DNA from: an uncultured Piscirickettsiaceae bacterium
Lineage (GTDB): Bacteria; Pseudomonadota; Gammaproteobacteria; GCF-002020875
Reading direction: 5' to 3'
Assembly (NCBI GenBank): GCA_964344785.1
Contig: CAYFOR010000002.1
Coordinates: forward strand, 506-64,505
DNA length: 64,000 bases
Of the stretch, positions 6,197 through 35,409 are shown in pieces (within the stretch, counting starts at the first letter, position 1; every line of letters begins with the position of its first letter). A program made the translations under genes and the position numbers. The notes beneath the pieces are model-generated. The model worked only from the letters and a program-made list of their open reading frames with translations. It had not been told where the DNA came from and searched no databases.

Positions 6197-6378
6197 AACG
6201 GTTCAGCTCACCTCTGAAATCTACCATCTCTGCGTTCGAAAATGGTCATGTATACCGATAACACTACGGGCAGTGCTCGTGGTCATCTTGGGATACATTT
6301 ACATTTTCTGCCTTGGGCTGGTGGAGTTTAGAGGCAATCTGAATCAGTTACAGGTACCGGTAAATAGTTACATCCGAT
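6197..6378 (+). repeat. MITE-like mosaic intergenic repeat, type A copy 1 (rpsO-pnp spacer)
   Basis: Left end aacggttcagctcacctctgaaatc; core ..gaaaatggtcat..cagtgctcg..; right ggtggagtttagagg plus tail module caatctgaatcagttacaggtaccggtaaatagttac; shares modules with copies near 15.5, 23.3, 29.1, 31.6 and 35.3 kb. Confidence 0.8.
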
Positions 6379-6442
6379 TTATCATCATTGTTATCGATTC
6401 AGGAAAAAGTCCTGGGTTGCTTACTGTCAGGGAAAAATAAAA

Positions 6443-8533
6443 GTGGAACCAATTATCAAGCGTTTCGAATATGGAAATCAGACGGTCACACTGGAGACCG
6501 GGGAAATTGCCCGCCAGGCATCAGGTGCAGTCAAGGTCAGCATGGGAGATACCGTCCTGCTGGTTACCGTGGTTGCGGAGAAAGAGGCTCGGGAGGGGCG
6601 TGACTTTTTCCCACTGACAGTCAACTATCAGGAGAAGTTCTATGCGGCAGGGGTCATTCCGGGAGGATTCTTCCGCAGAGAGGGACGTCCCACGGAGAAA
6701 GAGACGCTGACCTCAAGGTTGATCGACCGCCCAATCCGCCCACTCTTCCCGAAAGGGTTCATGAATGAGGTACAGGTGATCGCCACCGTGATGGCCTCTG
6801 ATCGGGATACCGATACCGAGATTCCGGCGATGATCGGAACCTCTGCTGCGTTGGCACTGTCTGGAGTTCCGTTTCAGGGACCGATTGGTGCCGCACGGGT
6901 TGGCTATCGTGATGGTGAATATCTGTTGAACCCTCCCCTGAGTGCCAAGGAAGAGTCTGATCTCGAACTGACCGTGGCTGGTACTGCGGATGCAGTGCTG
7001 ATGGTGGAGTCCGAAGCCAACATCCTTTCGGAAGAGGTGATGTTGGGTGCCGTGCTGTTTGGCCATGAGCAGATGCAGACCGTGATCGGGGCAATCAATG
7101 AAATGTGTGCCGAGCTTGAAGTCAAACAGTGGGAGTGGGAGCCTGCAGCGGAAGATACAGCATTGACCGAGGCGGTGGCCAAGGCGGGCGAAGATGCGGT
7201 TACCGATGTCTATCAGATTGCCGACAAGATGGAGCGCTACGGACGCATGGACGAGGTGCGTAGTCAGATTGTCGACGAATTGGTTACCGAGGATGGAGAG
7301 TGGGACGGCGACACCGTCAAGGCTGCCGTTTCCAAGCTGGAGAAAAAGGTTGTACGTGGTCGTATTATCGATGGACACCCCCGTATTGATGGTCGTGACA
7401 CCAAGACGGTCCGCCCTATTTTTGTAAAGACTGGAATTCTGCCACGTGTTCACGGTTCTGCACTCTTCACCCGTGGAGAGACCCAGGCAATGGTAGTCAC
7501 TACACTGGGTACCGACCGTGATGCACAGATCATTGATGCACTGGAGGGCAGCTTCAAGGACCCTTTCATGCTGCAATATAACTTTCCTCCATTTTCGGTT
7601 GGTGAAACCGGTCGTGTGGGCAGCCCCGGGCGCCGTGAAGTGGGTCATGGAAAACTGGCCAAACGGGGGGTGCAAGCCGTTGTCCCGTCGTTGGAAGAGT
7701 TCCCCTATACCATGCGCGTGGTCTCCGAGATTACCGAGTCCAATGGCTCCAGCTCGATGGCTTCTGTCTGTGGCAGCAGTCTGTCGATGATGGATGCAGG
7801 TGTACCGCTGAAAGCCCCGGTTGCCGGTATTGCAATGGGTTTGATCAAGGAGGGAGAGCAGTTTGCAGTATTGACGGACATCCTGGGTGATGAGGATCAC
7901 CTGGGTGATATGGACTTCAAGGTTGCGGGTACCACCGAGGGTGTGACTGCATTGCAGATGGATATCAAGATTACCGGGATTACCCGTGAAATCATGGAAA
8001 TCGCACTGGAGCAGGCACGCGAAGCCAGACTTCACATCCTGCAACAGATGAATACCGCTATCTCTACACCGCGGGAAGAGGTTTCGGAGTTTGCACCACG
8101 CTATCTCACCATGAAGATCGATCCGGACAAGATTCGTGATGTGATTGGCAAGGGTGGTGTGGTCATTCGTGCCATTCAGGAGGAGACCGGTGTCAAGATT
8201 GATCTGGATGATGATGGCAGTGTGAAGATTGCCGCAACCGATGGTGAGGCAGCGAAAGAGGCCAAACGCAGGATTGATGACATTGTTGCTGATGTCGAGG
8301 TGGACAAGATCTATGATGGCAAGGTAGTCAAGCTGATGGACTTCGGTGCATTTGTCAATATTCTTCCCGGCAAGGATGGTCTGGTCCACATCTCCCAGAT
8401 CTCTGCGGAGCGGGTGGAGAAAGTGAGTGACAAGCTGAGTGAGGGTGATCAGGTTCGGGTCAAGGTACTTGAAGTGGATCGTCAGGGCAGAATCCGTCTT
8501 AGCATGAAGGCTGTGCTGGAAGAGGAAGGGTAG
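6443..8533 (+). CDS. pnp: polyribonucleotide nucleotidyltransferase (PNPase)
   Basis: 696-aa ORF with GTG start ([26 protein letters not shown]..); two RNase PH domains, KH and S1 at C-terminus. Confidence 0.95.
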
Positions 8534-8560
8534 AAGGCGGAACGACACTGTTTTTCCGGG

Positions 8561-8591
8561 AAAAAAGGGGCCAGCGGTGGCCCCTTTTTTC
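8561..8591 (+). terminator. rho-independent terminator after pnp
   Basis: GC-rich hairpin AAAAAAGGGGCCAgcggTGGCCCCTTTTTT (stem 8567-8573 / 8578-8584) followed by a T-run; symmetric, could act bidirectionally. Confidence 0.65.
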
Positions 8592-8782
8592 TTGTAGAAT
8601 TTATCGCTGTTCAGCCCACTCCTGAACCCTTCTATTCGGCGTAGTGTGATCTCATGAATTTGGTTCAGGATGGTTGTTTGCGAGTGTAACCTCACACTTT
8701 ATCTGTTCTGTGTTGAAATGTTCTGCAATGAGTTATAGGGGAATCCAGACAGCTACATGAACGTGCTGATAGATGGCTTTGT

Positions 8783-9532
8783 TTGATGAAAATTCTTTTG
8801 AGTAACGATGATGGTGTTTTTGCGCCCGGACTACAGACACTCAGAGATCGGCTGCAGCGGTTGGCGGATGTTACCGTCGTTGCTCCGGACCGTAACCGTA
8901 GTGGTGCCAGCAACTCGTTGACACTGGACCATCCACTCCACCTCTTTCCTCAGGAGAATGGTGACTATGCCGTGGATGGCACGCCGACCGATTGCGTGCA
9001 CCTGGCGTTGACCGGGCTGCTTGATGAAGAGCCCGAGATGGTGATATCCGGGATCAATGCCGGTGCCAACATGGCAGATGATGTACTCTACTCGGGTACG
9101 GTAGCTGCAGCGATGGAGGGGCGACATCTGGGTAGACCGGCCATTGCGGTCTCACTCGCCTGTGCTGGTCACCAGTGTCACCACTTCGAGAGTGGAGCGA
9201 TTGCAGTTGAGCGGATTCTGGAGCGGTTGGGCGATCATCCACTGGAGCCGGACACGATTCTCAATATCAATGTGCCTGATCTTCCCTGGTCCGAGATCAA
9301 GGGGCTGAAGGTTACACGGTTGGGGAAACGCCACCGCTCAGAGCCTGTAGTCCAGACACAGGACCCTCGTGGCAAGGATATCTACTGGGTTGGGCCTGCG
9401 GGTGATGCTGACGATGGCGAGCCTGGAACAGATTTCGATGCCGTCGAACAGGGGTGGGTTTCAGTCACACCGATCCATACCGACCTGACCCGTCACTCAC
9501 TGTTATCCGAGATGGAGCGGTGGCTCCGATGA
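8783..9532 (+). CDS. surE: 5'/3'-nucleotidase SurE
   Basis: [19 protein letters not shown]..; DDG motif; canonical surE-pcm-nlpD-rpoS order. Confidence 0.9.
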
Positions 9533-10188
9533 GTGTGGAGGTCGGCTTCATTGGCGCAAGAGCGCGTGATCGGCTCATCTCCCTGTTGCGTGAAAAGGGG
9601 ATACGGAATCAGGATGTATTGAGTGCCATTCGTGACGTCCCGCGTCACCACTTTATGGATGAGGCCCTCCGGGCAAGGGCGTATGAGGATACTGCGCTGC
9701 CGATCGGCCATGAGCAGACCATCTCGCAGCCCTATATTGTTGCATTGATGACGGAGGCGCTGCTGCGGGGAGACAACAGACCGCAACGGGTTTTGGAGAT
9801 CGGTACCGGTTCAGGCTATCAGACGGCGGTGCTGGCAAAATTGATCCCGGAGGTTTACACCGTGGAACGGATTACCGCATTGACTCATCAGGCGCGTGAA
9901 CGCTTTGCCGAGATGGGGATGCTCAATATTGAGATGAAGCTGGATGATGGACACCTGGGCTGGGAAGAGCGGGCACCATTTGATGCAATTATCGTGACTG
10001 CGGCTCCGGCCGGGGTCCCCAAGCGTCTTTTTGAGCAACTTGAAATGGGAGGGAGAATGGTCCTGCCGGTTGGTGATGAGGGTGAAGTGCAGCGGCTGAT
10101 TGAGCTCATTCGGACAGAAGAGGGGATCGAGCAGAGTGATCTTGGTGCCGTTAAGTTCGTGCCGATGAAAAGAGGGGCAACAAGATGA
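9529..10188 (+). CDS. pcm: protein-L-isoaspartate O-methyltransferase
   Basis: ATG at 9529 overlapping the surE stop (ATGA); [11 protein letters not shown] and [18 protein letters not shown]-binding motif. Confidence 0.9.
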
Positions 10189-10763
10189 TGGAGTGGCTAC
10201 GTAGAATGAACCGCTGGGTGGCGGCGTGGGCAGACAAGCCACATGCAGAGCCGGTGTTGGCCAGCCTCAGTTTTGCTGAATCCAGCTTCTTTCCGATCCC
10301 TCCTGATGTGCTGTTGGCACCCATGACATTGGCTCACCCCGACAGGGGATGGCGTTATGCCATGTTGGTGACCGTGGCCTCGGTTATTGGTGGTATCTTC
10401 GGCTATCTGGTCGGCATGTATGGTATGGAGCTTGTGTCTCCACTGATTGAAGAGTGGGGGCTGCAACCAGCCTTCGACCATGCACGTGCCCAGTTTGACC
10501 AGTACGGAATATGGATTATCTTTCTGGCCGGGTTTTCACCGATACCCTACAAACTCTTCACCATCAGTGCTGGTGCCATGGCGATGTCGCTACCACTGTT
10601 TGTGATCGCCTCGCTGATTGGGCGTGGAGCCCGATTCTATCTGGTGGCCGCCTTTGTGATATGGGGTGGAGAGCGTTTCCTCCAGATGGAGCACCGCTGG
10701 ATGAACCGTATCGGCTGGATTGCCGTGGTTCTGGGATTGCTGGCCTATATTCTGTTGCGATGA
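10185..10763 (+). CDS. YqaA/DedA-family inner-membrane protein
   Basis: 192-aa hydrophobic ORF with 4-5 predicted TM segments; E..FFPIPPD..L SNARE-associated/YqaA-like motif. Confidence 0.55.
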   Translation: MMEWLRRMNRWVAAWADKPHAEPVLASLSFAESSFFPIPPDVLLAPMTLAHPDRGWRYAMLVTVASVIGGIFGYLVGMYGMELVSPLIEEWGLQPAFDHARAQFDQYGIWIIFLAGFSPIPYKLFTISAGAMAMSLPLFVIASLIGRGARFYLVAAFVIWGGERFLQMEHRWMNRIGWIAVVLGLLAYILLR

Positions 10764-11662
10764 ACTCACGTTGGTTGTGTACATTTTGCCTGTATGTGCT
10801 CATCATGGTGTTGACGGGGTGCGGTGGCCCCCGCAACGTGGCGGTGCCGATCGATAACTATACCCAACGAGCCTATGAGGTTCCCGAGCGTTATACGGTA
10901 CGGTCTGGTGACAGCCTCTACATGATTGCAATGGAGTTTGATCTGGACCATCTTGATGTTGCCGGATGGAACCATATTTCAGCCCCGTATGTGATCCATC
11001 GGGGGCAGGTGCTACGGCTTCGTCCACCAGCAAAACAGCGGACACCGGTCATCAGGAAGTGTGATGGAACATTCTATACAGTGATGCGTGGCGATAGTCT
11101 CGGTGAGATCGCTGCACGCTGTGGAGTTCAGCTCCATCAGTTGGCACAATGGAATCGATTGAGTCCACCTTATACCATCCAGGTTGGCCAACGACTTCGT
11201 CTGGCGGCACCTGCAAAGGCAGGCCATGCCACAAAGATGGCCAAGGCAGCCCGTCAGCCGAGAACGGCAACTCGTGATCGTGCTTCCAAAGGGGGGATAA
11301 GCCGCTTGAAGCGACCTGCCGGTGGTACGGTCGTGAAACGTTTCTCCAGCAAGAAGGGGGTAACCGGGATGGAGTTCAGTGGCAAAAAAGGGGACCCGGT
11401 TCGTGCTGCCGGAGATGGCAAGGTGGTGTATAGTGGTACCGGTCTGGTGCGATATGGCAAGTTGTTGATCATCAGCCATGATGGTAACCTGTTGACCGCC
11501 TATGCACACAATAGCGAGTTGCAGGTAACAGAGGGGGATCTGGTCAAGGCGGGACAACAGATTGCAAAGATGGGGAGTAGTGGGACAGATCGAGTCAAGC
11601 TGCATTTTGAGGTAAGGAAGGGCGGCAAACCGGTGAACCCAATGCTATATCTTGAAAAATAG
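10760..11662 (+). CDS. nlpD: murein hydrolase activator lipoprotein NlpD (LysM + M23 peptidase domains)
   Basis: ATG at 10760; lipobox LTGC; two LysM-like repeats (YTVRSGDSLYMIA, YTVMRGDSLGEIA); C-terminal M23 domain; upstream of rpoS. Confidence 0.85.
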   Translation: MNSRWLCTFCLYVLIMVLTGCGGPRNVAVPIDNYTQRAYEVPERYTVRSGDSLYMIAMEFDLDHLDVAGWNHISAPYVIHRGQVLRLRPPAKQRTPVIRKCDGTFYTVMRGDSLGEIAARCGVQLHQLAQWNRLSPPYTIQVGQRLRLAAPAKAGHATKMAKAARQPRTATRDRASKGGISRLKRPAGGTVVKRFSSKKGVTGMEFSGKKGDPVRAAGDGKVVYSGTGLVRYGKLLIISHDGNLLTAYAHNSELQVTEGDLVKAGQQIAKMGSSGTDRVKLHFEVRKGGKPVNPMLYLEK

Positions 11663-11670
11663 TGGCGTAA

Positions 11671-11706
11671 CTTGAATCAGTTACGGGCTTGGTGAATTAA
11701 GTTACG
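11671..11706 (+). repeat. partial copy of the MITE tail module immediately upstream of the rpoS start codon
   Basis: cttgaatcagttacgggcttggtgaattaagttacg resembles the tail module (c)tgaatcagttac.ggtac.ggt.aatagttac seen at 6.3, 15.6 and 35.4 kb. Confidence 0.4.
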
Positions 11707-11708
11707 TA

Positions 11709-12584
11709 ATGGCAACGGAAGAGGAAGAGTACACTGCTGGAAAACTGCATGGGAGCGAGCGTGATGCGATGCACCTCTACATGCAGGAGATCCGGGACTA
11801 CCCACTGCTGAATGCTGAAGAGGAGCAGCAGTGGGCACGCAAGGTTCAGAAGGGGGATATTGATGCACGTAACCGGTTGGTTGAGTCCAACCTGCGTCTG
11901 GTAGTCAGTATCGCCCGTCGATACCAGAATCATGGTGTCTCACTGATGGATCTGGTCGAAGAGGGGAATCTTGGTCTGATGCGTGCAGTTGAGAAATTTG
12001 ATCCTGATCGGGGATTCCGTTTCTCAACCTATGCAACCTGGTGGATTCGACAGAGTGTCGACCGGGCAGTGATGAGTCAGGGGCGTACGGTGCGCCTGCC
12101 GATCCATATCCTGCGCGAGATGCGCGGCTATCTGCGTGCCTCACGCGAGCTGGCACAGAGTAGCAACCACGAACCTTCCGTTGCAGAGGTTGCGGACTAT
12201 CTTGACCGTTCTGAAGAGAGTGTCGATCAGATGATTACCTTCAGTGAGCCAACGACTTCGATTGAGACACCGATTGCCAAGGGTTCGAATCAGACCATCG
12301 GTGAAGTGATCGAAGATGAGTCGCTGGCTGCTCAGGATGAGAGACTGTTGCAGGAGGAGATCTATAACCATCTCAGTGAGTGGTTGGATGGGCTGAAGGA
12401 GCGGGAACGAAAGGTAGTGGTACACCGTTTCGGGCTACTCGATCAGGAGGAGATGACGCTGGATGCATTGGGTGAGGTATTGGGGGTGACCCGTGAACGG
12501 GTTCGACAGATCCAGATGGGGGCATTGAGCCACCTTCATGATATTCTGATTCGAGCAGGGTATTGTGAAGAGAATGTGCTATAA
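11709..12584 (+). CDS. rpoS: RNA polymerase sigma factor RpoS (sigma-38)
   Basis: 291-aa sigma-70 family ORF after nlpD; region 2 ([38 protein letters not shown]), region 4 HTH; short region 1 (no upstream in-frame start). Confidence 0.85.
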
Positions 12585-12593
12585 AACCAGCGG

Positions 12594-13289: not shown

Positions 13290-14426
<1,137 letters not shown>

Positions 14427-14454
14427 TGATACGGTGTAAAGAATTGAGCGGAGA

Positions 14455-15531
14455 TTGTACATGAATGGTCTGGTGGTTGGGGTACCATCTGAAGTACGCG
14501 CATTTGAAGGGCGGGTAGCGCTGACACCACAGGCGGTATCATCGCTAAAGGCGGCGGGTAGTGATGTACTGATCCAACAGGGGGCAGGGCTTCTGAGTGG
14601 ATTTGATGATCACCAGTATCATGATGCTGGCGCCGAAATGGTCTCGGATGCGTTTTCGCTGTATCAGAGAGCAGAGCTGATTGTTAAGGTCAAGGAGCCC
14701 CAACGCAGTGAGATCCCGTTGCTGAGGAGAGGGCAGCTGCTCTTCTGTTATCTGCACCTTGCAGCAGACCTGGAGTTGATGGCGTTATTGGCAGAGACTG
14801 GATTGACGGCCATTGCCTTTGAGACGGTTGAAGTGGACGGCCGGCTACCGTTGTTGGCACCGATGAGCGCCATTGCCGGAAAACTGTCTGTACAGATTGG
14901 AACCCGGCTTCTGCATCAGCCACAAGGAGGAAAGGGGTTATTGCTGGGAGGGGTTGATGGTGTTGAGCCTGGGCGGGTAGTGATACTGGGGGGTGGCGTG
15001 GCAGGAGAGGCGGCACTCTCTGTTGCATCCGGTATTGGTGCGGAAGTCACACTGCTTGAGCGGACAGAGAGGCGAATCGAAATATTGAAACAGCGTTATC
15101 CGGGCATTGAGGGGGTGTTGTCATCCGGGGCCACGATCTCCGATCATGCAGCCGGAGCGGACCTGTTGATTGGAGCGGTACTGCTCAAGGGCGCGCGTGC
15201 CCCCAAGCTGGTCAGCAAGAAGGTGGTCGCGCAGATGGGGGCAGGCAGTGTGGTGATTGACATCTCGGTTGATCAGGGCGGTTGTATCGAAACCATTCGG
15301 CCAACGACCTATCAATCTCCAACCTATACCGTAGACGGCGTCACCCATTTTGGGGTCACCAACATGCCTGGCGCTGTACCAAGGACGGCTTCTCAGGCAC
15401 TTTCAGCAGCCATTCTTCCCTGGGTGATCAAATTATCTCAAGACAAATGGAGAGAGATGTCAGTGCTGACTGAGGCGATCAATATTGATCAGGGGGAAGT
15501 GGTCTATCCAGCGCTCAAGACCATGATCTGA
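14455..15531 (+). CDS. ald: alanine dehydrogenase (AlaDH/PNT family)
   Basis: 358-aa ORF; ..RVALTP..VKVKEP..FCYLHLAAD..AIAFETVE..LPLLAPMS..VVILGGGVAG..VIDISVDQGGC..TNMPGAVPRT motifs typical of AlaDH. Confidence 0.8.
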   Translation: MYMNGLVVGVPSEVRAFEGRVALTPQAVSSLKAAGSDVLIQQGAGLLSGFDDHQYHDAGAEMVSDAFSLYQRAELIVKVKEPQRSEIPLLRRGQLLFCYLHLAADLELMALLAETGLTAIAFETVEVDGRLPLLAPMSAIAGKLSVQIGTRLLHQPQGGKGLLLGGVDGVEPGRVVILGGGVAGEAALSVASGIGAEVTLLERTERRIEILKQRYPGIEGVLSSGATISDHAAGADLLIGAVLLKGARAPKLVSKKVVAQMGAGSVVIDISVDQGGCIETIRPTTYQSPTYTVDGVTHFGVTNMPGAVPRTASQALSAAILPWVIKLSQDKWREMSVLTEAINIDQGEVVYPALKTMI

Positions 15532-15534
15532 AGT

Positions 15535-15672
15535 AACTGTTCAGCTCACCCCTGAAATCCGCCATTTCCTGCCTTGAAGCGCAGCAATGCCTTTAGGCGG
15601 TCACTGACGAATTTCAGGAGCAATCTGAATCAATTACGGGTACTGGTGAATAGTTACGATCTGAATCGCTGT
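15535..15672 (+). repeat. MITE-like repeat, type A copy 2 (short form lacking internal core)
   Basis: aactgttcagctcacccctgaaatc begins 1 nt after the ald TGA; tail caatctgaatcaattacgggtactggtgaatagttac. Confidence 0.8.
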
Positions 15673-15874
15673 GCCGGAAAAAGCGGAACCCCATCCAACA
15701 AGTCCGTTCGTGTGTGCCTGGCTGCCTTTGATTTGTACACTGAAGCGTCGTGGATGAGGCTCATTCTGATCTTAGGTCAGGTTGTCGGTGTGTCAAGAAA
15801 AAAGTATCAGCACACTTTTTACGCTCCAAAATCCCGGAATATTCTGCCTGTACTTCGGGGTGCCACTTTCCAGC

Positions 15875-16564
15875 TCAAGGCTGCTTGAATAGAACAGTTT
15901 CTACAGCTTGACCCATCTTTTCCGAGGGCCACCGCTCTGGTGGCGATGGAGCAATCCGGGGTGAGTAGACCCGTGTTCCGTAGCCGGGTTGATCGATTAC
16001 AGTCCGTCCGGCACTGTTTTCTACATAGATTGCCTTCCCTGACAGCAGGGCAAACTCGAGCGATTCACCATGATCCAGTGAGCCTCCCCAAAAGCCCGTC
16101 CCTCGCACACCAATTACTGCCAAGGGGGTTTTGATCGTAAAGGGGTGTCCAGCCAGGTCGGCGATGCGTCCCGTGTCTACCTTGAAAGCGCCTGATGAAA
16201 TGTAAGTGCTGGCCAGGCCGGACCCTGCTTCGCCATCGTAACGATACTGCCTGAACTCGACCTGGGAGAGTGAGCCGGCAGTAATCAGTGCATCATCAAT
16301 CATCTGCAGGGTGATCCGGGTATCCGGTTTCGAGTGTAGTCGGTCACCCTCGAAAATCTGATCCCCAGTTGAGAGTTCACGGTCAGTACTTGTCGTTGAA
16401 ACAAGAACGGTACCTTGCAGTTGTGTCACCACACCGATCAGATGAGGCCGATCCTGTCTGTTGCTCTCTTCCCCGCTCAAGGATGGTGGCAGAGCGACAA
16501 GCGCAAGGAGGAGGGTCAGCACAGGTGCAACAAGGCGTGGTTGTGTATGTATCGGATGGTTCAT
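15875..16564 (-). CDS. FecR-domain periplasmic protein (signal peptide)
   Basis: Likely start MNHPIHTQPRLVAPVLTLLLALVALPPSLSG (signal peptide); FecR-like beta-rich domain; no adjacent ECF sigma factor. Confidence 0.5.
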   Translation of the reverse strand: MNHPIHTQPRLVAPVLTLLLALVALPPSLSGEESNRQDRPHLIGVVTQLQGTVLVSTTSTDRELSTGDQIFEGDRLHSKPDTRITLQMIDDALITAGSLSQVEFRQYRYDGEAGSGLASTYISSGAFKVDTGRIADLAGHPFTIKTPLAVIGVRGTGFWGGSLDHGESLEFALLSGKAIYVENSAGRTVIDQPGYGTRVYSPRIAPSPPERWPSEKMGQAVETVLFKQP

Positions 16565-16803
16565 GCAACTTCGGTGAGTCGTACTATCGGGCGGCTTGCA
16601 GATGGATCTATACAGTCTCGGCGACAATCTCAGTCTCGTCAAATAAATTGCGAATGGTGTAAATACGCTCTAACAGCACAAATGGTTCAGTGTTCAGGCC
16701 GATTCCGGTAAAATTCTTCGTTTTTCTAAAGCCGAGGGAAAAGCAGTTGGCGCGTACGAAGAGACAGGAAGAGCATAACCCGGCCAGCCGAACAGGTCGT
16801 GGC

Positions 16804-22634: not shown

Positions 22635-23277
22635 TCTTCAGGATTGAGTCGATGCAGGCGAGTGGTGCGAATTGTTGCAGTCGCTCCGCTTCATGGACAC
22701 CATAGCAGACTCCAATCGAGGCCATATTGGCCTGCTGGGCCATCTCCAGATCGTATTCGGTATCCCCAATCATGACCGCATTCTCTGCGTCGATCTGCAG
22801 CGCTTCCAGGATCTCAAACAGCATCTGGGGATGGGGTTTGGATCGGGTCTCATCTGCGCAGCGTGTGATGTCAAAGGTATCGTTCAAGCCGATTTCATTC
22901 AGTGTGTGGTCCAGACCACGTCGACTCTTGCCGGTTGCTACCGCTATTTTGACGCCGCCACGGCGTAGTTGATCAAGCAGTTCCATGACTCCGGGGAAGA
23001 GGTCTTCACGCACCTGTTTGACCTGCAGGAAATGGCTTCGGTAGTGGTCGGCGAGCGTATGGGCAAAAGCCGCATCACTCCCCGGGTAGAGCATGGAGCA
23101 GGCCTCCAAAAGACCCAGGCCAATCACATTGCTGACCTCGTTGTCACTGCGTGGTGCCAGCCCCATGTCCGATATTGCACCATGCATACAACGCACAATC
23201 AAATGCACGGAGTCCATTAGTGTTCCATCCCAGTCAAAGATGACCAATTTGATGGGGGCATTCATAAGTTGCGACAT
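22597..23277 (-). CDS. HAD-superfamily phosphatase (phosphoglycolate phosphatase-like)
   Basis: Motif I VIFDWDGTLMDS, motif III K, motif IV GDTEYD; the 3' end overlaps the maf end convergently. Confidence 0.7.
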   Translation of the reverse strand: MSQLMNAPIKLVIFDWDGTLMDSVHLIVRCMHGAISDMGLAPRSDNEVSNVIGLGLLEACSMLYPGSDAAFAHTLADHYRSHFLQVKQVREDLFPGVMELLDQLRRGGVKIAVATGKSRRGLDHTLNEIGLNDTFDITRCADETRSKPHPQMLFEILEALQIDAENAVMIGDTEYDLEMAQQANMASIGVCYGVHEAERLQQFAPLACIDSILKIREILPLPAPAS

Positions 23278-23280
23278 GAG

Positions 23281-23421
23281 TAACTGTTCATTGGTACTCG
23301 TAACTGATTCAGATTGCCTCTGAAATTCGTCAGATCAAGGCGTGAAATGTGAGTTTATACGTATAAATGTCCATTTCACAACACAGAGCTGGTGGATTTC
23401 AGAGGTGAGCTGAACAGTTGC
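23281..23421 (-). repeat. MITE-like repeat, type A copy 3 (inverted orientation), overlapping the rluC 3' end
   Basis: Tail module (revcomp) at 23281-23325, core caaggcgtgaaa..tttcacaacacaga, end ggtggatttcagaggtgagctgaacagtt; the end encodes the last 14 codons and stop of rluC. Confidence 0.8.
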
Positions 23422-24374
23422 CGACATGATTCACTCTCCTGGAGTCGTTGAAGCACCTGCTGCAATGGTTCTGGGAGCGGGGCCTCCAGCCGTACCGTTG
23501 TCTCATCCTTGGGGTGGGGAAAGGCGATTTGGTGTGCATGCAGGAAGAGTCGCCTCAGGCCCATGTCGGCCATCTGCCGGTTGAACCGGTCATCACCATA
23601 TCGCTTGTCGCCAGCCAGTGGATGGTGAATATGGGCACCATGAACCCGGATCTGGTGCGTACGACCGGTGATGATTTCCACCTCGGCCAGGGTTGCATGC
23701 TCGCATGAGAGTCGTGGCATGAAGTGGCTCTCTGCCTCTTTTCCCTTTGTGCTCACCTGTACCAGACGCTCTCCAGACTTCAGTACACTTTTTTGCAGGG
23801 GGGCCGTCACATGCTTCCCTTTTCTCATCCTCCCCTTGAGCAGGGCGAGATATTGCTTCGTCACCCGCTGTTCACGGATCGACTGGTGCAGAGCGCGCAG
23901 TGCACCACGTCGCTTGGCGATCAACAGCAATCCGGAGGTTGCACGATCCAGCCGATGGACCAGTTCATAGCCGCCGGCCTCTTCACGAAGTGCCCGAAAA
24001 GACTCGATGACACCAAACTGGATGCCGCTGCCTCCATGAACGGCGATGCCGGAAGGTTTGTTGATCGCAATCATGTGCCGATCTTCATAAATAATCGCAG
24101 ACTCCAGCCACTCGACCGATTCGACTTTGGGGGGGGGCTTCTGTTCAGTCGTCCGAATGGGTGGGATTCTCACCTGATCTCCAGACTGCAGGCGATAGGT
24201 CTGTTTGACGCGTTTCTTGTTGACCCTTACCTCGCCTTTGCGCAGGATACGGTAGATGCGGCTTCTGGGAACCCCTTTCAAGGCAGTGATGAGAAAATTA
24301 TCAATCCTCTGCCCTTCCTGCTCGTTGGAGATCTCTACCAAACGTACCTGGTTGGAAGTGGGAAGGTGATCCAT
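23376..24374 (-). CDS. rluC: 23S rRNA pseudouridine synthase RluC
   Basis: 332 aa; S4 domain plus RluA-family catalytic motif HRLDRATSGLLLIAK; C-terminal QLFSSPLKSTSSVL* is read from the repeat end. Confidence 0.85.
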   Translation of the reverse strand: MDHLPTSNQVRLVEISNEQEGQRIDNFLITALKGVPRSRIYRILRKGEVRVNKKRVKQTYRLQSGDQVRIPPIRTTEQKPPPKVESVEWLESAIIYEDRHMIAINKPSGIAVHGGSGIQFGVIESFRALREEAGGYELVHRLDRATSGLLLIAKRRGALRALHQSIREQRVTKQYLALLKGRMRKGKHVTAPLQKSVLKSGERLVQVSTKGKEAESHFMPRLSCEHATLAEVEIITGRTHQIRVHGAHIHHPLAGDKRYGDDRFNRQMADMGLRRLFLHAHQIAFPHPKDETTVRLEAPLPEPLQQVLQRLQESESCRQLFSSPLKSTSSVL

Positions 24375-27911: not shown

Positions 27912-29054
27912 ATGATGAAACTCATGAATAGAAAATGGGCGTTAACCGCTTCTTTGTTGGTGATGATCGGTATCTTCGTATTGGGAGGTATCAGTGCCCG
28001 TCTGACGATAGCGCAGGAGGAGCCAGAGATGGGTGATCAATCCAGGGTTGAACGAGCCATTTTTGCCGGTGGGTGCTTCTGGTGTATGGAGCCACCATTC
28101 GAAAAACTTGATGGTGTAGTCGATGTAGTTTCCGGTTTCACAGGTGGTGACACGGTGGACCCAACCTACAAGCAGGTAGTGACCGGTACTACAGGCCATC
28201 TGGAGGCGGTCGAGGTGACCTATGACCCGGCCAGGATCGATTATGGAACGCTGGTGGATACTTTCTGGCGACAGATTGACCCAACGGATGATGGTGGTTC
28301 CTTTGTGGATCGGGGAAGCCACTATCGTAGTGCAATCTTCTATCTGAATGCGGAACAGCAGGCGGCTGCAGAGCAGTCCAAAAGCGAGTTGGGACAGTCC
28401 GGGATGTTTGAGCAGCCCATTGTGACCGCCATTCTTCCAGCCAAACCCTTTTATCGGGCGGAGGATTATCATCAGAACTTCTACAAAACCAACCCGTTAC
28501 ACTATAAACGTTATCGTGCAGGATCTGGCCGGGATCAGTTTATTCAGTCGACCTGGATCAGTATGAAATCTGACCAGACTGATACCCCGAAGAAATATGT
28601 AAAGCCATCGGATGATGAACTCAAACGGCGCTTGACGCCACTGCAGTTTGAAGTGACGCAGGAGGAGGGAACCGAGCGTGCCTTCAACAATATCTACTGG
28701 GATAACAAGGCGGATGGGATCTATGTTGATATCGTTTCAGGAGAGCCGCTCTTCAGTTCCACCGACAAGTACGATTCTGGTACCGGCTGGCCGAGCTTCA
28801 CCCGTCCAATCGTAAAGGATGTACTCACCGAGAAAGAGGATCGTCGCCTCTGGTTCTCGGTACGAACAGAGGTGCGCAGTAAATTTGCGGACTCCCATCT
28901 TGGGCATGTCTTCGATGACGGCCCTGCACCGACCGGGCTACGTTACTGTATCAACTCCGCATCACTGCGCTTCATACCCAAAGAGGATCTGAAAAGTGAA
29001 GGGTATGAAGAGTTCATCAAGTTATTTGATCGCAACGACCCGGATCACCCCTGA
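27912..29054 (+). CDS. msrAB: secreted/periplasmic peptide methionine sulfoxide reductase MsrA-MsrB fusion
   Basis: Signal/anchor peptide; MsrA catalytic GCFWC; MsrB GTGWPSF and RYCINSASL; the stop lies inside the repeat end cacccctgaaa. Confidence 0.9.
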
Positions 29055-29183
29055 AACTCACCATCTCTGCGTTCGAAAATGGTCATGTATACGTATATAT
29101 GACCATTTTCTGCCTTGATCTGGTGAGTTTCAGAGGCAATCCGACCCGTTACGACAGTGTACTAAAACTACATTTGATTCAGA
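29045..29183 (+). repeat. MITE-like repeat, type A copy 4, overlapping the msrAB stop
   Basis: cacccctgaaactcaccatctctgcg; perfect hairpin cgaaaatggtcatgtatacgtatatatgaccattttctg; ggtgagtttcagaggcaat. Confidence 0.8.
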
Positions 29184-29270
29184 ATAACCAAGTCAGTACC
29201 CTCACCACTCTGAGGTAACGGGGAAATCCGTTGCCATCTCTCAACGTGACTGCTTGAGCCCTGGGAGGCT

Positions 29271-29825
29271 TTGCTGATGAGTGGTGATAACCATATGGAA
29301 GTGGTTGATTTGTTGGCTCGTACTGCACTGAAAGAGCGTGCTGCCTTCGAAAGGCTCTATCGGCTGACCTCGATGAAACTGTTTCCCCTGTTGCTGCGTA
29401 TATTAAAGCGAGAGGATCTTGCTCAGGAGTGTCTTCAGGAAGCCTACGTACAGATCTGGAATCGCGCAGAAGAGTATCGAAACGATCTGGCTGCACCGAT
29501 TACCTGGATGACGACCATTGCCCGTTATCGTGCATTGGACCTGCTTCGAAGGCGTAAACATGAAGTGCCACTGGAAGACGAGATGCTCTTGGATGGTGAT
29601 GAAGAGCGGGACGGATTATTGCAGCAACTGGAGGCAACAGAGGATGGAGTGGCGTTGGCCGAGTGTATGAAGCAGTTGAGTCAGCAGCAGCGGAACTGCA
29701 TCTACCTTGCGTACTTTGAGGGGAGTACTCACCCGGAAATCGCCTCCAGAATGGATGTGCCTGTTGGATCCGTCAAGACCTGGATTCGTCGAGGAATGAG
29801 CAGCTTGAAGGGGTGTCTGTCATGA
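29271..29825 (+). CDS. ECF-type RNA polymerase sigma-70 factor
   Basis: 184 aa; sigma-70 region 2 (..YVQIWNRAEEY..PITWMTTIARYRALDLLRRR) and region 4 HTH (HPEIASRMDVPVGSVKTWIRRG). Confidence 0.85.
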   Translation: MLMSGDNHMEVVDLLARTALKERAAFERLYRLTSMKLFPLLLRILKREDLAQECLQEAYVQIWNRAEEYRNDLAAPITWMTTIARYRALDLLRRRKHEVPLEDEMLLDGDEERDGLLQQLEATEDGVALAECMKQLSQQQRNCIYLAYFEGSTHPEIASRMDVPVGSVKTWIRRGMSSLKGCLS

Positions 29826-30496
29826 GTCAAGAGATTGAGGAGAGAGCAGCAGGGTATGTATTGGGTACGCTTGCGGGGGAGGAACGTGAATCATTCGAAA
29901 TGCAGATGCGCAAGGATCGCACACTTGCAGAGATGGTGGCCCAGTGGGAGCAGCGACTGCAGCCTCTGGCGGATACGGTTGGTGAGGTGCAGCCGCCTCA
30001 ACAGGTTTGGCGTAACATCGAACAACGCCTGGGCTTTGAAGATTCGGTTCGGCAACACTCATTCTGGGACAATCTGCGGCTCTGGCAGGGCATCAGTGCG
30101 GTGGCAACCGCCTTTGGAATCTGGTTCGCCTTTCTGGTCATCAATATGGCGCCGCAAGGCCCCGAGTTGCTCTATCTGGTTCAGGATCAGGGAAAGACAG
30201 AGTGGATTGTAAGAGCGAGCTATCAGCAGCCCCGGGTAGAGATCGAGGCTGTTGAACCACCGCATCTGCCACAAGGGCAGGTGTGCCAGCTCTGGCTGAC
30301 CCTGCCGGATGGGTCGGTCAGGCTGGTTGCCGAACTGCCCCACAGTGGAGAGGTGTCCGTTCCACTTTTCGGAGACATCAATCGATTGCTCTCACCAGGC
30401 ACCATGCTCTCCGTTACCGTGGAGAGCGCCGAGGAGAAAATGGATCGTATCCCCAGTGATACGATGGTTTCTCAAGGCCGCTGGATCAGAATCTAA
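29813..30496 (+). CDS. anti-sigma factor (RskA/ChrR-like), single TM
   Basis: Overlaps the sigma gene end; N-terminal AAGYVLGTL..ERESFE..WE.RL.PL anti-sigma motif; TM ISAVATAFGIWFAFLVINM; extracytoplasmic C-domain. Confidence 0.7.
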   Translation: MSVMSQEIEERAAGYVLGTLAGEERESFEMQMRKDRTLAEMVAQWEQRLQPLADTVGEVQPPQQVWRNIEQRLGFEDSVRQHSFWDNLRLWQGISAVATAFGIWFAFLVINMAPQGPELLYLVQDQGKTEWIVRASYQQPRVEIEAVEPPHLPQGQVCQLWLTLPDGSVRLVAELPHSGEVSVPLFGDINRLLSPGTMLSVTVESAEEKMDRIPSDTMVSQGRWIRI

Positions 30497-30505
30497 TCGT
30501 TTCTA

Positions 30506-31444
30506 GTGGCTGAGATACAGGCCGGTATGTTGAACAACCAGTCCTGCAACGAAGGTCTGCTGCAGGATATGCTGTTGCTGGACCATCTGGGAGACGTGGG
30601 GATGAGTGAAATGATTTCACTGATGCGTCTTCATGTCCAGGAGGTGACACGGTTCAGTTTGCTGGTTGCCTACAGGCTGCCCCTCTCTGCAGAGCAGCAA
30701 CGTGTGTTTGTGCGGGACTGTTCCGGTTATGAGATTGACCCGGAACCATTTTTACAGACGGTAGAAGGGGGGACTCGACTCTCAATTGCAGGTATACAGT
30801 TGCTGAAAATCTGTGCCAAGGTGCATGATATCGGCAAGCCATTCTTCCGACAGATCTACAGCCAGGCCCGAAGATTGACACAGCAGGAGTTCAATCAACA
30901 GAAACTGCATGCCAATCTGTCGCGTTTGATCGTGAAGGGGTGGCTCAATCAGCCCGGTCTCCACTTTTCCAACCCTGATCTGGTACGGATGGTGGCTGAT
31001 GTCGCTGCACAACATCAGGAGAAGTTTGATGGTACCGGCTACCCGGATGGCATCGCAGGAGAGGAGATCTCGCTGTTGGGGCGGCTGCTGGCGATTACCG
31101 ATGCAATCAGTGCGATTGTCAATCCACGCCCTTATGAGGCAGCAACGCCACTACAGGAGGCACTGGTTCGACTGGAGTCGGACAGTGGCAGACATTTTGA
31201 CCCGCTGCTGCTTGAACAGGCCATCACTGTGCTGCGCCAGGAGGTGACGGATGCTCCTCGTTTCAGTGGTGAGTGGGATGATATGTCTGAACACTCACCG
31301 GACTATCTTCAGTTTGTTGCCAATATCGATTACGCCGAGGTGGTTTCAAGCCGTGGCGAGGTTGGCCGTGGTGATCGCCAGACGCTGCAGCAGTTGCAGC
31401 AGTTGACACAGGAGGTTCTGGAGCGACCCATAAGAAAAAATTGA
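30506..31444 (+). CDS. HD-GYP-type domain protein (possibly degenerate)
   Basis: HD motif KVHDIGKPF and QHQEKFDGTGYPDG (HHExxDGxGYP with the first His replaced by Gln); ..ITDAISAIVNPRPY. Confidence 0.65.
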   Translation: MAEIQAGMLNNQSCNEGLLQDMLLLDHLGDVGMSEMISLMRLHVQEVTRFSLLVAYRLPLSAEQQRVFVRDCSGYEIDPEPFLQTVEGGTRLSIAGIQLLKICAKVHDIGKPFFRQIYSQARRLTQQEFNQQKLHANLSRLIVKGWLNQPGLHFSNPDLVRMVADVAAQHQEKFDGTGYPDGIAGEEISLLGRLLAITDAISAIVNPRPYEAATPLQEALVRLESDSGRHFDPLLLEQAITVLRQEVTDAPRFSGEWDDMSEHSPDYLQFVANIDYAEVVSSRGEVGRGDRQTLQQLQQLTQEVLERPIRKN

Positions 31445-31535
31445 AAAAAATCAAAAAAACTGAATCCATTGGTACGAACACCACGTATATCATACCGACT
31501 GGTGTTCACACTGTTGAACGGGTCGAAAACCGATA

Positions 31536-31730
31536 AGGAGCCTGGTGACAATTAAGTTGGACAGATTGCGCAGGATTTCGTTTCGTATTCAAGGCGTGAA
31601 AATGGGCGCATAACACTACGAGCAGTGCTCGAGGTCACCTTAGGGTATTCATTATATGTAACCGTTTTCACAACACAGAAGACGAAACGAAAGACAAGCA
31701 AGGTGTTCGAGTTATTTTTGCCAGGTTCCT
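31536..31730. repeat. MITE-like mosaic repeat, type B copy 2, directly upstream of the precursor gene
   Basis: aggagcctggtgacaa../..ttatttttgccaggttcct ends; core gacagattgcgcagg..caaggcgtgaaa..cactacgagcagtgctcg..tttcacaacacagaagacga. Confidence 0.8.
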
Positions 31731-31760
31731 TGGTCAATAAAATTCAATGGAGTAATAAAC

Positions 31761-32099
31761 ATGGACAAGAAGATCTCAACGCTGGCATTGGCAACTTCCG
31801 TTGCATTGGGAATGGGTGCATCGAGTACTACTTTTGCAGCAGATAACCCATTCGCCATCTCCGAGTTGCCGGCTGGTTATCAGTTGGCCAACAACATGGA
31901 AGGCAAATGTGGTGAAGGTAAGTGTGGTGGCTCCAAGCCCAAGGCCAGTGAAGAAGGCAAGTGCGGTGAAGGCAAGTGTGGCGGTTCCAAGCCCAAGGCG
32001 AGCGAAGGCAAATGTGGTGAAGGTAAGTGTGGTGGCGCCAAACCCAAGGCCAGTGAAGGCAAGTGCGGTGAAGGAAAATGTGGTGGTGGAAAGGTATAA
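31761..32099 (+). CDS. secreted Cys-rich repeat precursor peptide (bufferin-like, EGKCG-repeat class)
   Basis: 112 aa: Sec signal peptide (..GASSTTFA|ADNP), then 3.5 tandem units EGKCGEGKCGG[S/A]KPKAS (8 Cys); stop is 3 nt before the DUF692 gene. Confidence 0.8.
   Translation: MDKKISTLALATSVALGMGASSTTFAADNPFAISELPAGYQLANNMEGKCGEGKCGGSKPKASEEGKCGEGKCGGSKPKASEGKCGEGKCGGAKPKASEGKCGEGKCGGGKV
31899..32096 (+). repeat. 48-51-nt coding tandem repeat (x3.5) inside the precursor gene
   Basis: gaaggcaa(a/g)tg(t/c)ggtgaagg(t/c/a)aa(g/a)tgtgg(t/c)gg(c/t)(t/g)ccaa(g/a)cccaaggc(c/g)ag(t/c)ga units with mostly synonymous differences. Confidence 0.85.
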
Positions 32100-32102
32100 G
32101 CG

Positions 32103-32960
32103 ATGAAGCAACCCAACCCACCTATTTCCGGTGTTGGCCTGGGGCTCCGGCGTGATCTTCTGGACACGCTGGAGGTGCAGATCCCCGGTTCCATCGAGTT
32201 TATGGAGGCTGCTCCTGAAAACTGGATGGGGCTTGGGGGCAGGCTGCGCGACTCACTGGAACGGGTTGTGGAGCAGGTCCCGTTGATCTGTCATGGACTT
32301 TCACTCAATCTTGGAGGTTACAGTCCACTCGATCAACAATTTCTAAAAGAGCTCCGTCAGTTCCTGGATCTCTATCAGATTCCGGTCTACAGCGAGCACC
32401 TCAGCTACTGTGGAGACCATGGACATCTTTATGACCTGATGCCGATCCCGTTTACAGAAGAGGCGGTGCGCTATGTCGTCGAACGTATTCGGCAGGTTGA
32501 AGATGCCTTGGAGCGTCCACTCGTATTGGAGAATATCTCCTACTACGCCGCACCGGGACAACAGATGAGTGAACTGGAATTTATCCAGGCGGTGCTGGAA
32601 GAGTCCGGGTGTGAGATGTTGCTGGATGTAAATAATATTTATGTCAACAGTGTCAATCACCGTTACGACCCGGCACAGTTTCTAAGTGAGCTCAGTGACC
32701 GGAAGATAAGTTATATCCATGTGGCCGGGCACTACCATGAGGCTGAAGATCTGATCGTGGATACTCATGGGGCTGCCGTGGAAGATCCGGTGTGGGCGTT
32801 GCTGCAGCAGGCCTACGGACAGTTTGGTGCAGTGCCTACGCTGTTGGAACGTGATTTCAATATTCCGGCCCTGGAAGAGTTGCTGGCAGAGATGGCACAG
32901 ATTCGCCAATACCAGCAGGCAGTGAACAATAGTGCAGAGGAGTTTGCGGATGTTGCATGA
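32103..32960 (+). CDS. DUF692-family protein (MbnB/BufB-like peptide-modifying enzyme)
   Basis: 285 aa; GVGLGLRRDLL..EFMEAAPENWMG..LICHGLSLNLGG..YSEHLSYCG..LVLENISYY matches the DUF692 signature. Confidence 0.85.
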   Translation: MKQPNPPISGVGLGLRRDLLDTLEVQIPGSIEFMEAAPENWMGLGGRLRDSLERVVEQVPLICHGLSLNLGGYSPLDQQFLKELRQFLDLYQIPVYSEHLSYCGDHGHLYDLMPIPFTEEAVRYVVERIRQVEDALERPLVLENISYYAAPGQQMSELEFIQAVLEESGCEMLLDVNNIYVNSVNHRYDPAQFLSELSDRKISYIHVAGHYHEAEDLIVDTHGAAVEDPVWALLQQAYGQFGAVPTLLERDFNIPALEELLAEMAQIRQYQQAVNNSAEEFADVA

Positions 32961-33738
32961 TCAAACCGCTCCATCTTATCGCTTTCAGCAACTGCAGCAG
33001 CAGTTTGCCGCTCATATTCGTTCCCCCGAACGGCAACCGATACCAGATGGGATCGAGGCCAGAAGGATGGCGATCTATGAGGAGCTGTTCTTCAATAATG
33101 TAGAGGGAATACTCGCCAGTGGATTTCCGGTGATTCGAACGCTCTATAGTGAAGAGAAGTGGCATCAGTTGGTACGGGACTTTTTCCATCTGCACCCCTG
33201 CAAGAGCCCCTATTTTTCACAAATCCCGTATGAATTTGTCCAATACCTGATGAATGAACGGGATCAGAGTTCGGATGATCCGCCATTTCTGCTGGAGTTG
33301 GCCCACTACGAATGGGTTGAGCTGGAGCTGAGTATCGATCCAGCCTCTCCGCAGTGGGATGAGTACGGCATGGTGGATGAGACTCTGCACCATATCGCGG
33401 TCCTCTCTCCGTTGGTCAGGGTATTGAGTTACCACTATCCGGTACAGATGATATCTGCCGAGAATGCACCAGTGGAGGCGCCACCGCAGCCAACCTATCT
33501 GTTGCTCTATCGGGACCGCAATCATGAGATCCACTTTATGGAGTCGAATCCGTTGGTCAACCGTCTCGTTGAATGGGTTGGTGAAGGGCGGGGTGCGGTG
33601 CGGGTGTTGCTGATCCAGTTGGCGGAGGAGTTTGGGCTCCCTGCAGATGAGGGCTGGTTGATGCATGGCAAGCAGCTACTGGATGAACTGGCCGTGCGCG
33701 GAGTCATTCTGGGCTATCAGACAAGCGGAGAGGAGTGA
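32950..33738 (+). CDS. DUF2063-family protein (MbnC/BufC-like partner)
   Basis: Overlaps the DUF692 end by 11 nt; N-terminal ..FQQLQQQFAAHIRSPE.. DUF2063-type domain; alternative start 32932. Confidence 0.7.
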   Translation: MLHDQTAPSYRFQQLQQQFAAHIRSPERQPIPDGIEARRMAIYEELFFNNVEGILASGFPVIRTLYSEEKWHQLVRDFFHLHPCKSPYFSQIPYEFVQYLMNERDQSSDDPPFLLELAHYEWVELELSIDPASPQWDEYGMVDETLHHIAVLSPLVRVLSYHYPVQMISAENAPVEAPPQPTYLLLYRDRNHEIHFMESNPLVNRLVEWVGEGRGAVRVLLIQLAEEFGLPADEGWLMHGKQLLDELAVRGVILGYQTSGEE

Positions 33739-34334
33739 TGATCCGGTTATTGATACAATTTCAGAAATGGATGGATCTGGGCCGAAATATCGATTTTCTG
33801 GCGCCACTGGCCTTGCGGCTCTATCTGGTACCGGTATTCCTGACTGCGGGCATGAACAAGGTCAACGGCTTTGAAAATGTCGTGGAGTGGTTCGGTAATA
33901 GTGAGTGGGGATTGGGACTTCCCCTTCCCTGGCTGATGGCGCTGTTGGCGACTGCAGCGGAGGTGATTGGTTCGCTGATGCTGCTGTTTGGATTTGGCGT
34001 TCGCTGGGCTACGATTCCCCTGATGGTGACAATGATCGTTGCGATCGTGACGGTCCATCTTGAGCATGGTTGGCAGGCTGTTGTCGATGGTAATAGCCCG
34101 TTCCCTCCGGCAGATTTGGCAGAAGCCCAGGAGCGACTACAGGCCGCTCGCTCCATTCTGCAGGAACATGGACACTATGACTGGCTGACGGCCAGTGGCA
34201 ATTTTGTAATTTCAAACAATGGAGTGGAGTGGGCAGTGACCTATCTTGTCATGCTGCTTGCGCTTTTCATCAGTGGAGGGGGGCGTTATCTGAGCGCGGA
34301 TTTCTGGATCAGAAGAAGATATTTTCCAGAATAA
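33735..34334 (+). CDS. DoxX-family membrane protein
   Basis: ATGA overlap with the DUF2063 stop; 199 aa, 3-4 TM segments, DoxX-like LALRLYLVPVFLTAGMNK. Confidence 0.75.
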   Translation: MMIRLLIQFQKWMDLGRNIDFLAPLALRLYLVPVFLTAGMNKVNGFENVVEWFGNSEWGLGLPLPWLMALLATAAEVIGSLMLLFGFGVRWATIPLMVTMIVAIVTVHLEHGWQAVVDGNSPFPPADLAEAQERLQAARSILQEHGHYDWLTASGNFVISNNGVEWAVTYLVMLLALFISGGGRYLSADFWIRRRYFPE

Positions 34335-34577
34335 TCAATTCTTTAGTGAACTAGAGCGGCCCAACTAACATTCAGTGCAGGTGTTCAATCCGGGCCGCTC
34401 CGTTCGCTTATTATTATCTTTACCGTTACCCGGATAGACAATACGCATAATTACGTATATTTGCCGGGTTTTTATTTTTATTGTTTGTATACAATAAGTT
34501 ATTTGTTTTGGTGCCCTTTTCTTACAGCGGCAGTTGATCTGCAAATGGTTATCTCTTGTCAGGTATAATCCAGTTCC

Positions 34578-34964
34578 ATGCAACTAGTCGCAATCGCCGC
34601 AGGCGGTGCCATGGGTGCCGTTGTACGATATCTTGTATCCAATGGAGTCCACCAGTGGTTGGGGCGTGGTTTCCCGTGGGGAACCCTGGTAGTCAATGTA
34701 ATGGGCTCGTTGGTGATGGGACTCCTGTTTGTGTTGCTGACGGAGCGTTTGGCGCTTGACCCCTTCTGGCGGGCATTGACGCTTGTCGGTTTTCTCAGTG
34801 CTTTCACTACCTTTTCAACGTTTTCGATCGAGACCTTGAACCTGATGGAGAGTGGTGAGTGGCTGCTGGCGGTGGTGAACGTGTTGAGTAGTGTCATGCT
34901 CTGTCTGTTGGCAGCCTGGCTGGGAATGGTGGTTGGTCGGGAAAGCCTGGGGATTGCACCATGA
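34578..34964 (+). CDS. crcB: fluoride ion channel CrcB/Fluc
   Basis: 128 aa, 4 TM; GAMGAVVRY..FPWGTL.VN..G.FTTFSTFS signature. Confidence 0.9.
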   Translation: MQLVAIAAGGAMGAVVRYLVSNGVHQWLGRGFPWGTLVVNVMGSLVMGLLFVLLTERLALDPFWRALTLVGFLSAFTTFSTFSIETLNLMESGEWLLAVVNVLSSVMLCLLAAWLGMVVGRESLGIAP

Positions 34965-35272
34965 GAAAAGAGGTGGTGATGATGGCGCGTCTCTACCTCT
35001 CAGAGGAGCATGCCCAGCTGAAATCGCTGCTGCAACTGCTACACGACCAGGAACAGGTGCGTGGCGTTACGGTTTTCCGTGGTATTGCCGGTTATGGCGA
35101 TAATGGAGAGGTTCATGGAACAGGGCTGGTCGACCTTTCGTTCAATCTGCCGCTGGTCATTGAATTCTTTGATTCACCGGAAAAGGTGGAGCGGGTATTG
35201 AACGATTTGGCGGAGAGAATGGATTCTGCTCATATGGTCTACTGGACCGCTGAGCAGATGGTTAAGGATTGA
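34961..35272 (+). CDS. DUF190-family protein (crcB-associated)
   Basis: ATGA overlap with the crcB stop; 103 aa ..ARLYLSE..VRGVTVFRGIAGYG.. typical DUF190; its TGA abuts a repeat copy. Confidence 0.7.
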   Translation: MRKEVVMMARLYLSEEHAQLKSLLQLLHDQEQVRGVTVFRGIAGYGDNGEVHGTGLVDLSFNLPLVIEFFDSPEKVERVLNDLAERMDSAHMVYWTAEQMVKD

Positions 35273-35409
35273 AACTGTTCAGTTCACCCCTGAAATCCGC
35301 CATCTCTGCGTTGTGAAATGGTCATTTATACGTATAAACTCACTCACGCCTTGATCTGACGAATTTGAAGGGCAATTTGAATCAGTTACTGGTTCTGGTG
35401 AGTAATTAC
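35273..35409 (+). repeat. MITE-like repeat, type A copy 5 (upstream of serS)
   Basis: aactgttcagttcacccctgaaatc..ttgtgaaatggtcat..cgtataaa..gaatttgaagggcaatttgaatcagttactggttctggtgagtaattac. Confidence 0.8.

Follow-up and report, generated by a model that had tools for sequence, protein, structure and literature searches.

A 64,000-nucleotide (nt) stretch of DNA from an uncultured Piscirickettsiaceae bacterium (positions 506 to 64,505 of contig CAYFOR010000002.1, assembly GCA_964344785.1; hereafter the window) harbours a previously undescribed family of MITEs (miniature inverted-repeat transposable elements), an ordinary kind of selfish DNA that resides between the genes of this marine-type gammaproteobacterium and its relatives. 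With a probability of about 0.85, these elements, designated type A, are non-coding deletion derivatives of an insertion sequence (IS) moved in trans by a transposase, an action which we infer, while a second set of repeats, type B, constitutes a sister palindromic family. In the window, type A is represented by six copies and one 39-nt remnant and type B by two copies, all located between genes and within the first 36 kb; a search with an nhmmer profile of 47 copies finds no further copy at 36-64 kb. The seven copies which an earlier note on this DNA had listed exist far beyond chance, as both types were recovered by repeat detection and MAFFT alignment of the window and a 21-nt left-end pattern has four matches against 0.01 expected.

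Several features by which MITEs are recognized come together in type A, with a non-coding length below about 500 bp, terminal inverted repeats, a target duplication of fixed length and a presence at many loci with empty counterparts. Loci for comparison were gathered by the exact 21-nt left-end pattern with one genome per species, which gave 53 stretches, nearly all from uncultured gammaproteobacterial metagenome-assembled genomes (MAGs; three labelled Piscirickettsiaceae, S140_32, S141_57, Dive96_bin10.234 and one Sedimenticola MAG); the few matches in unrelated phyla are chance. Across the window and the loci of eight gammaproteobacterial MAGs, nhmmer delineates 73 non-overlapping copies, 47 of full length. 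The elements extend from GTAACTGTTCAG to CTGAATAGTTAC, the start reading GTAACTGTTCAGCTCACCCCTGAAATC, and the 47 aligned copies have GTAACT(G/A)TTCAG on the left and CTGAATAGTTAC on the right as terminal inverted repeats. The right part reads ...CAATCTGAA(T)CAGTTAC and continues with a 20- or 31-nt spacer which ends in CTGAATAGTTAC, the inner CTGAA(T)CAGTTAC being a second, internal copy of the right terminus.

It is the flanks that distinguish between the two termini. In the window and the eight related MAGs, direct repeats of 8 bp at the outer terminus are perfect in 18 of 33 tailed copies and match at seven of eight positions in another six, with a chance of an 8/8 match of about 1.5e-5 per copy, while flanks taken at the inner terminus of the same copies match at 0-4 of 8 positions, which is chance level. 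As the duplications appear only at the outer terminus, the 'tail' (..GGTACTGGTGAATAGTTAC), considered an optional add-on module in the earlier note, is the real right terminus of type A. Flanking repeats of 8 bp are characteristic of cut-and-insert transposition in which the target is cut with a stagger of 8 bp. Two copies in different MAGs, L004 6177-6370 and L007 4043-4165, share the same duplication GTTGCCGG, followed by AT, which may reflect orthology of the two sites or a target preference.

Within the window, the long form of 177 nt at 6195..6371 (+), between rpsO and pnp, is flanked by identical copies of ATCCGATT (6187-6194 and 6372-6379; 8/8), the core-deleted form of 125 nt at 15533..15657 (+), directly 3' of ald, by GATCTGAA (15525-15532 and 15658-15665; 8/8), and the short form of 142 nt at 23280..23421 (-), at the junction of rluC and a HAD-phosphatase gene, by TCATGTCG on the reverse strand (23272-23279 and 23422-23429; 8/8). 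A 140-nt copy with diverged ends at 29032..29171 (+; nhmmer E about 1e-30 or lower), between msrAB and an ECF sigma factor gene, has the flanks ATTTGATC (29024-29031) and ATTTGATT (29172-29179), which match at 7/8, and the duplication of the 139-nt copy at 35271..35409 (+), between a DUF190 gene and serS, has decayed to 3/8; metagenome contig L001 holds a copy identical to the latter. The fragment between nlpD and rpoS, described previously as tail only, indeed carries the right end, but is an internally deleted remnant of 39 nt at 11667..11705 (+; GTAACT plus TGAATCAGTTACGGGCTTGGTGAATTAAGTTAC) in which 6 nt from the left end are preserved as well. Too short for nhmmer, it was assigned by direct comparison with the family consensus, and its flanks ATAGTGGC (11659-11666) and GTAATGGC (11706-11713) match at 6/8. 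Likewise, a degenerate end suggested at 8615-8640 is type A-like, but belongs to a whole, heavily decayed copy at about 8603..8767 (+; nhmmer E=5.6e-6, profile positions 5-132) directly 3' of the pnp terminator hairpin.

Empty sites, for which the earlier note had proposed a search in related genomes, were found twice in one syntenic relative. This relative, the nearest one by its Ald protein (70% identity), keeps the gene order aat-trxB-ald-ftsK-lolA, and neither a type A nor a type B element is present throughout the 7-kb region. Its trxB-ald spacer measures 69 nt; that of the window, at 214 nt, is made up of 54 nt and the type B element of 159 nt. With the ald-ftsK spacer equally element-free, two window insertion sites are empty. 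Together with the inverted repeats, the 8-bp duplications and a spread to numerous unrelated loci of at least eight related genomes, this bears out the previous description of type A as a non-autonomous, MITE-like element.

In the mechanism that we propose, a transposase of the DDE type, with its gene located elsewhere or meanwhile lost, would bind the terminal inverted repeats GTAACT(G/A)TTCAG, cut the target with an 8-bp stagger and insert the type A element, whereupon repair of the stagger would leave the 8-bp direct repeats. Of the insertions, only intergenic ones would persist. These would often fall precisely on a stop/start junction, with the stop or start codon restored by the duplicated 8 bp, and the inserted copies would later decay, or gain and lose internal segments. 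In the window, the ald stop codon TGA (15529-15531) lies within the duplicated 8 bp of the 15.5 kb copy, as does the ATG of the HAD phosphatase gene within those of the 23.3 kb copy, and the flanks of the remnant contain the nlpD stop codon (11659-11666) and the rpoS ATG (11706-11713). The rluC frame runs 45 nt into the 23.3 kb element and thereby acquires an element-encoded tail of 15 residues (23376-23421), and the msrAB stop codon (29052-29054) is located inside the 29.0 kb element. Open reading frames (ORFs) in the elements, which are 125-225 nt long, are only read-throughs or spurious. A peptide thought to be shared by two such frames occurs exactly only once; the second type B copy encodes it with one residue different.

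Besides their ends, type A elements differ in internal modules. A subfamily of 141-142 nt with the 20-nt tail is found in the window and the ERP019367 MAGs and one of 152 nt with the 31-nt tail in S140_32, S141_57 and Sedimenticola, while the 177-nt form has a 35-nt module at the hairpin apex (about 6259-6295 in the 6.2 kb copy) and the 225-nt form at locus L026 two further modules. The 125-nt copy at 15.5 kb, correctly noted before to be devoid of the central hairpin, is a deletion derivative of the 225-nt, L026-like form. As the size variants align as nested indels, the mosaic arose mostly by insertions and deletions, not by core exchange; of the swapped cores postulated in the earlier note, the modular variants are thus real, but go back to a longer form by nested insertions and deletions of modules, together with a single apex module in flipped orientation. 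Sharing of caaggcgtgaaa/tttcacaacacaga by the 14.3, 23.3 and 31.6 kb copies and of cactacgRgcagtgctcg by the 6.2 and 31.6 kb copies was observed as reported.

The copies are of different age. Mean identity within a genome is 97.6% in ERP019367_co1_32 and 93.9% in S140_32 compared with 72.9% in the window, which identifies the window copies as old relics, and related MAGs carry young bursts. Between better-sampled MAGs, copies are about 82-92% identical. Copies of the window and of ERP019367_co1_32 share about 80% identity versus about 63% for orthologous proteins, which hints at horizontal spread, with the reservation that sampling by pattern favours conserved copies. In ERP019367_co1_32, many contigs break off about 54 nt into the left part of the MITE (L002, L008, L015, L022, L032, L033, L042); short-read assemblies are fragmented by the repeat.

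Type B elements are near-perfect hairpins of 159-195 nt. The 159-nt copy at 14268..14426 (+), with a folding energy of -82.7 kcal/mol (z -11.6), makes up most of the divergent trxB-ald intergenic region, and the 195-nt long form at 31536..31730 (+) is located after an HD-domain gene and 30 nt upstream of hvfA. Their terminal inverted repeats, previously called perfect, are complementary at 17 of 18 positions at 14.3 kb and less so at 31.5 kb. Over most of its length, the arm ...CAGATTGC... and the central hairpin included, type B can be aligned with type A in reverse complement, so that the two types are, as proposed before, related. In the 31.5 kb copy, the 35-nt apex module (about 31609-31643) has an orientation relative to the arms opposite to that in the long type A copies, which suggests a loop flip between inverted arms or an independent acquisition. 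A metagenome scan for type B yielded 16 loci with two real copies, L067 and L068, in which the outer 17-18 nt differ on both arms with complementarity kept. Among the 14 other loci, four are unrelated chance matches and ten (L056-L065, soil metagenome contigs) match by chance over 19 nt (..TVGQIAREYQVHPVQVTQWK..) the stretch of an IS3-like orfA gene that codes for the helix-turn-helix, without kinship to type B.

Judged by its sequence, type B is a sister palindromic family related to type A whose mobility is unproven; with no target duplication visible, transposition could not be shown, and on this point the description as a second mobile type is only partly borne out. That type B is not a transposon at all, but either an immobile form derived from type A by palindromisation or a separate palindromic repeat propagated by recombination or some other process that duplicates no target, is a less likely, though substantial alternative. 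It would account for the four copies without a duplication of any length, for the nearly perfect complementarity of the arms, which conversion of one arm by the other would produce, and for an interior with homology to type A in reverse complement; palindromised right ends, GGGGTGAGCTGAAC, also occur in some type A copies. On the other hand, type B is present at unrelated loci, in the window and on two metagenome contigs, the outer repeats differ between loci yet stay complementary, which fits ends that co-evolve with a transposase, and a sample of four old copies is too small to dismiss duplications that have since decayed. A mode of movement such as that of REP and REPIN elements, by a RAYT (IS200/IS605-like) transposase, is highly improbable for the family: it is palindromic, intergenic and multi-copy as those are, but REPINs leave no 8-bp target duplication, while here 24 of 33 copies match at 7/8 or better, and no RAYT-like gene was seen in the loci and the ten large window ORFs.

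It is likewise improbable, if less extremely so, that the elements persist at gene ends primarily because they are selected as RNA or DNA signals, be it as transcript-stabilising or RNase III-cleaved hairpins, as terminators or as portable promoters. Most copies do form long hairpins (z -4 to -11.6), among them the 6.2 kb copy (-67.8 kcal/mol, z -6.4) and those at 15.5 kb (z -4.0), 23.3 kb (z -4.0) and 29.0 kb (z -8.1), copies reside tens of nt or less from gene ends, the five well-preserved type A copies of the window all have the orientation of their flanking genes and type B occupies a divergent promoter region and the region upstream of hvfA. In tandem gene contexts, based on gene calls from a codon-usage scorer, however, 18 copies have the same and 14 the opposite orientation (13 versus 14 outside the window), with 8 further copies between convergent and 3 between divergent genes. 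Nor is folding of the transcribed strand superior to that of its complement (mean difference 0.5 kcal/mol, p=0.75). Whatever the context, it is the reverse-complement strand whose fold is the more stable, by about 11 kcal/mol, an asymmetry which, being the same throughout, was inherited from a master copy. The fold is lost in the 35.3 kb copy (z -0.11), covariation contributes no more than -0.61 kcal/mol to the consensus fold, and counts of promoter and terminator motifs equal those of shuffled sequences, with no sigma-70-like promoter or intrinsic-terminator motif inside any full-length element. The sole terminator-like match that touches the family (11685-11666, minus strand), in the remnant upstream of rpoS, is within chance. 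Rfam gave no family match at gathering score over the elements, with one tRNA in the whole window and, at E<=1, one spurious microRNA model over an element (24.5 bits versus a gathering score of 90), and transposition, as the target duplications show, brought the copies to their sites. Roles as terminators, stabilisers or mobile promoters, as the earlier note had envisaged, therefore find no support in orientation, folding and motif scans, and selfish DNA that is tolerated in intergenic regions is the reading by default. That some copies were co-opted as sites of RNase III-type processing or of regulation in stress and RNA-decay genes has a low probability, and so has, separately, a spread of type B without target duplication; candidates for co-option are the stable type B hairpins at trxB/ald and before hvfA and type A at the rpsO-pnp leader and the nlpD-rpoS junction. 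Whatever the earlier promoters of trxB and ald were, the type B hairpin may now separate the two genes from them.

As to the parent of the type A MITEs, GTAAC ends combined with an 8-bp duplication point, at somewhat below even odds, to the IS66 family. IS66-family elements have terminal repeats of 20-30 bp starting GTAAGCG and produce 8-bp direct repeats (PMC11946415), and one IS66 end with a GTAACCG start reads GTAACCGTCCGGGCA (PMC12888890). The assignment is tentative, as IS256-family elements likewise give duplications of about 8 nt, and the ends of one of them, ISPsy17, which read GAGACTGTCAG, are somewhat similar to type A (PMC3189936). No IS66-type DDE transposase (TnpC, with TnpA/TnpB) was found near any copy, a limited sample which is not proof of absence, and ORFs beside end-only fragments (L016, L010, L050), considered as remains of a parent, are ordinary housekeeping genes. 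All-against-all BLASTP of 335 locus proteins reveals no repeated protein among the loci, and, in accordance with the earlier note, no transposase is encoded in the elements, nor is a transposase domain present in the ten large window ORFs. Among 72,556 plasmids, BLASTN detects no match to type A or type B, viral contigs gave 0 matches for both types, and no literature on MITEs in Sedimenticola or under the study accessions turned up.

Several observations weigh against a MITE family with a transposing parent as described. An autonomous element with type A ends is absent from about 400 kb of related loci, from plasmids and from viral contigs, and the link to IS66 consists of four terminal bases and the duplication length only. 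A right end with two direct copies of the terminus is an unusual feature that lacks an explanation, target duplications of 2-10 nt are absent at all four type B copies, and the exact left-end pattern biases the locus sample towards well-preserved copies.

Further features of the window deserve mention. The hvfA-hvfB-hvfC operon (31761-33738), for a ribosomally made, modified metal-binding peptide, contains a 51-54-nt tandem repeat at 31899-32109 which encodes the repeated KCGEGKCGG motifs of the HvfA precursor. Beside the 15.5 kb MITE, between ald and ftsK, a FecR-domain gene (15875-16642, minus strand) which is absent from the syntenic relative is a lineage-specific insertion. A non-coding block 3' of ald (window ~15683-15735, L073 ~4117-4160; ..CCCCATCCA..GTCCGT.CGTGTGTGCCTGGCTGCCTTTGAT..) is about 85% identical between the two genomes, compared with only 70% for the Ald proteins, and could represent a conserved sequence with a regulatory or small-RNA role. 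Two paralogous 629-aa genes at 58302-60191 (+) and 61133-63022 (-), ABC-F-type by Pfam for the one tested, explain by their inverted arrangement the long inverted repeats that appear as I2 and I9 in the repeat scan.

For annotation, the family matters as a source of false ORFs and of altered gene ends, as in rluC and msrAB, and for assembly as a repeat that breaks short-read contigs. It also marks the exchange of mobile elements among uncultured gammaproteobacteria, and its copies could be used as strain markers; the understanding of how MITEs work is unchanged by it.

Compared with known systems, type A shares with the IS66 family the GTAA start (GTAACTGTTCAG here) and the 8-bp target duplication, but no tnpA, tnpB or tnpC was found with type A ends, the similarity is weak beyond the first 5 nt and the doubled terminus at the right end sets type A apart. 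The ERIC/IRU elements of Enterobacteriaceae and Vibrio are imperfect palindromes about 125 nt long which lie between genes and are transcribed together with their neighbours, with size variants that arise by insertions at fixed internal sites. Palindromy, size, intergenic placement and size variants are thus alike, while there is no evident sequence relationship and the host lineage is different; to our knowledge, ERIC elements are without clear target duplications, in contrast to the 8-bp duplications of type A. Correia elements (CREE) of Neisseria, MITEs of 100-160 nt with terminal inverted repeats and internal-deletion variants, are situated beside genes, form long mRNA hairpins, duplicate TA and have documented promoters and RNase III sites. 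Type A has different repeats and an 8-bp instead of a TA duplication, and differs in that promoters and RNase III sites are documented for Correia elements. For MITEPsy1 of Pseudomonas syringae, a 100-nt, IS5-related element with a 4-nt duplication, transposition was shown experimentally and the ends match a resident IS (PMC3189936), whereas we infer the mobility of type A from sequence. Common to both are the target duplication and the insertion at gene 3' ends, by which new C-termini are created (PMC3189936).

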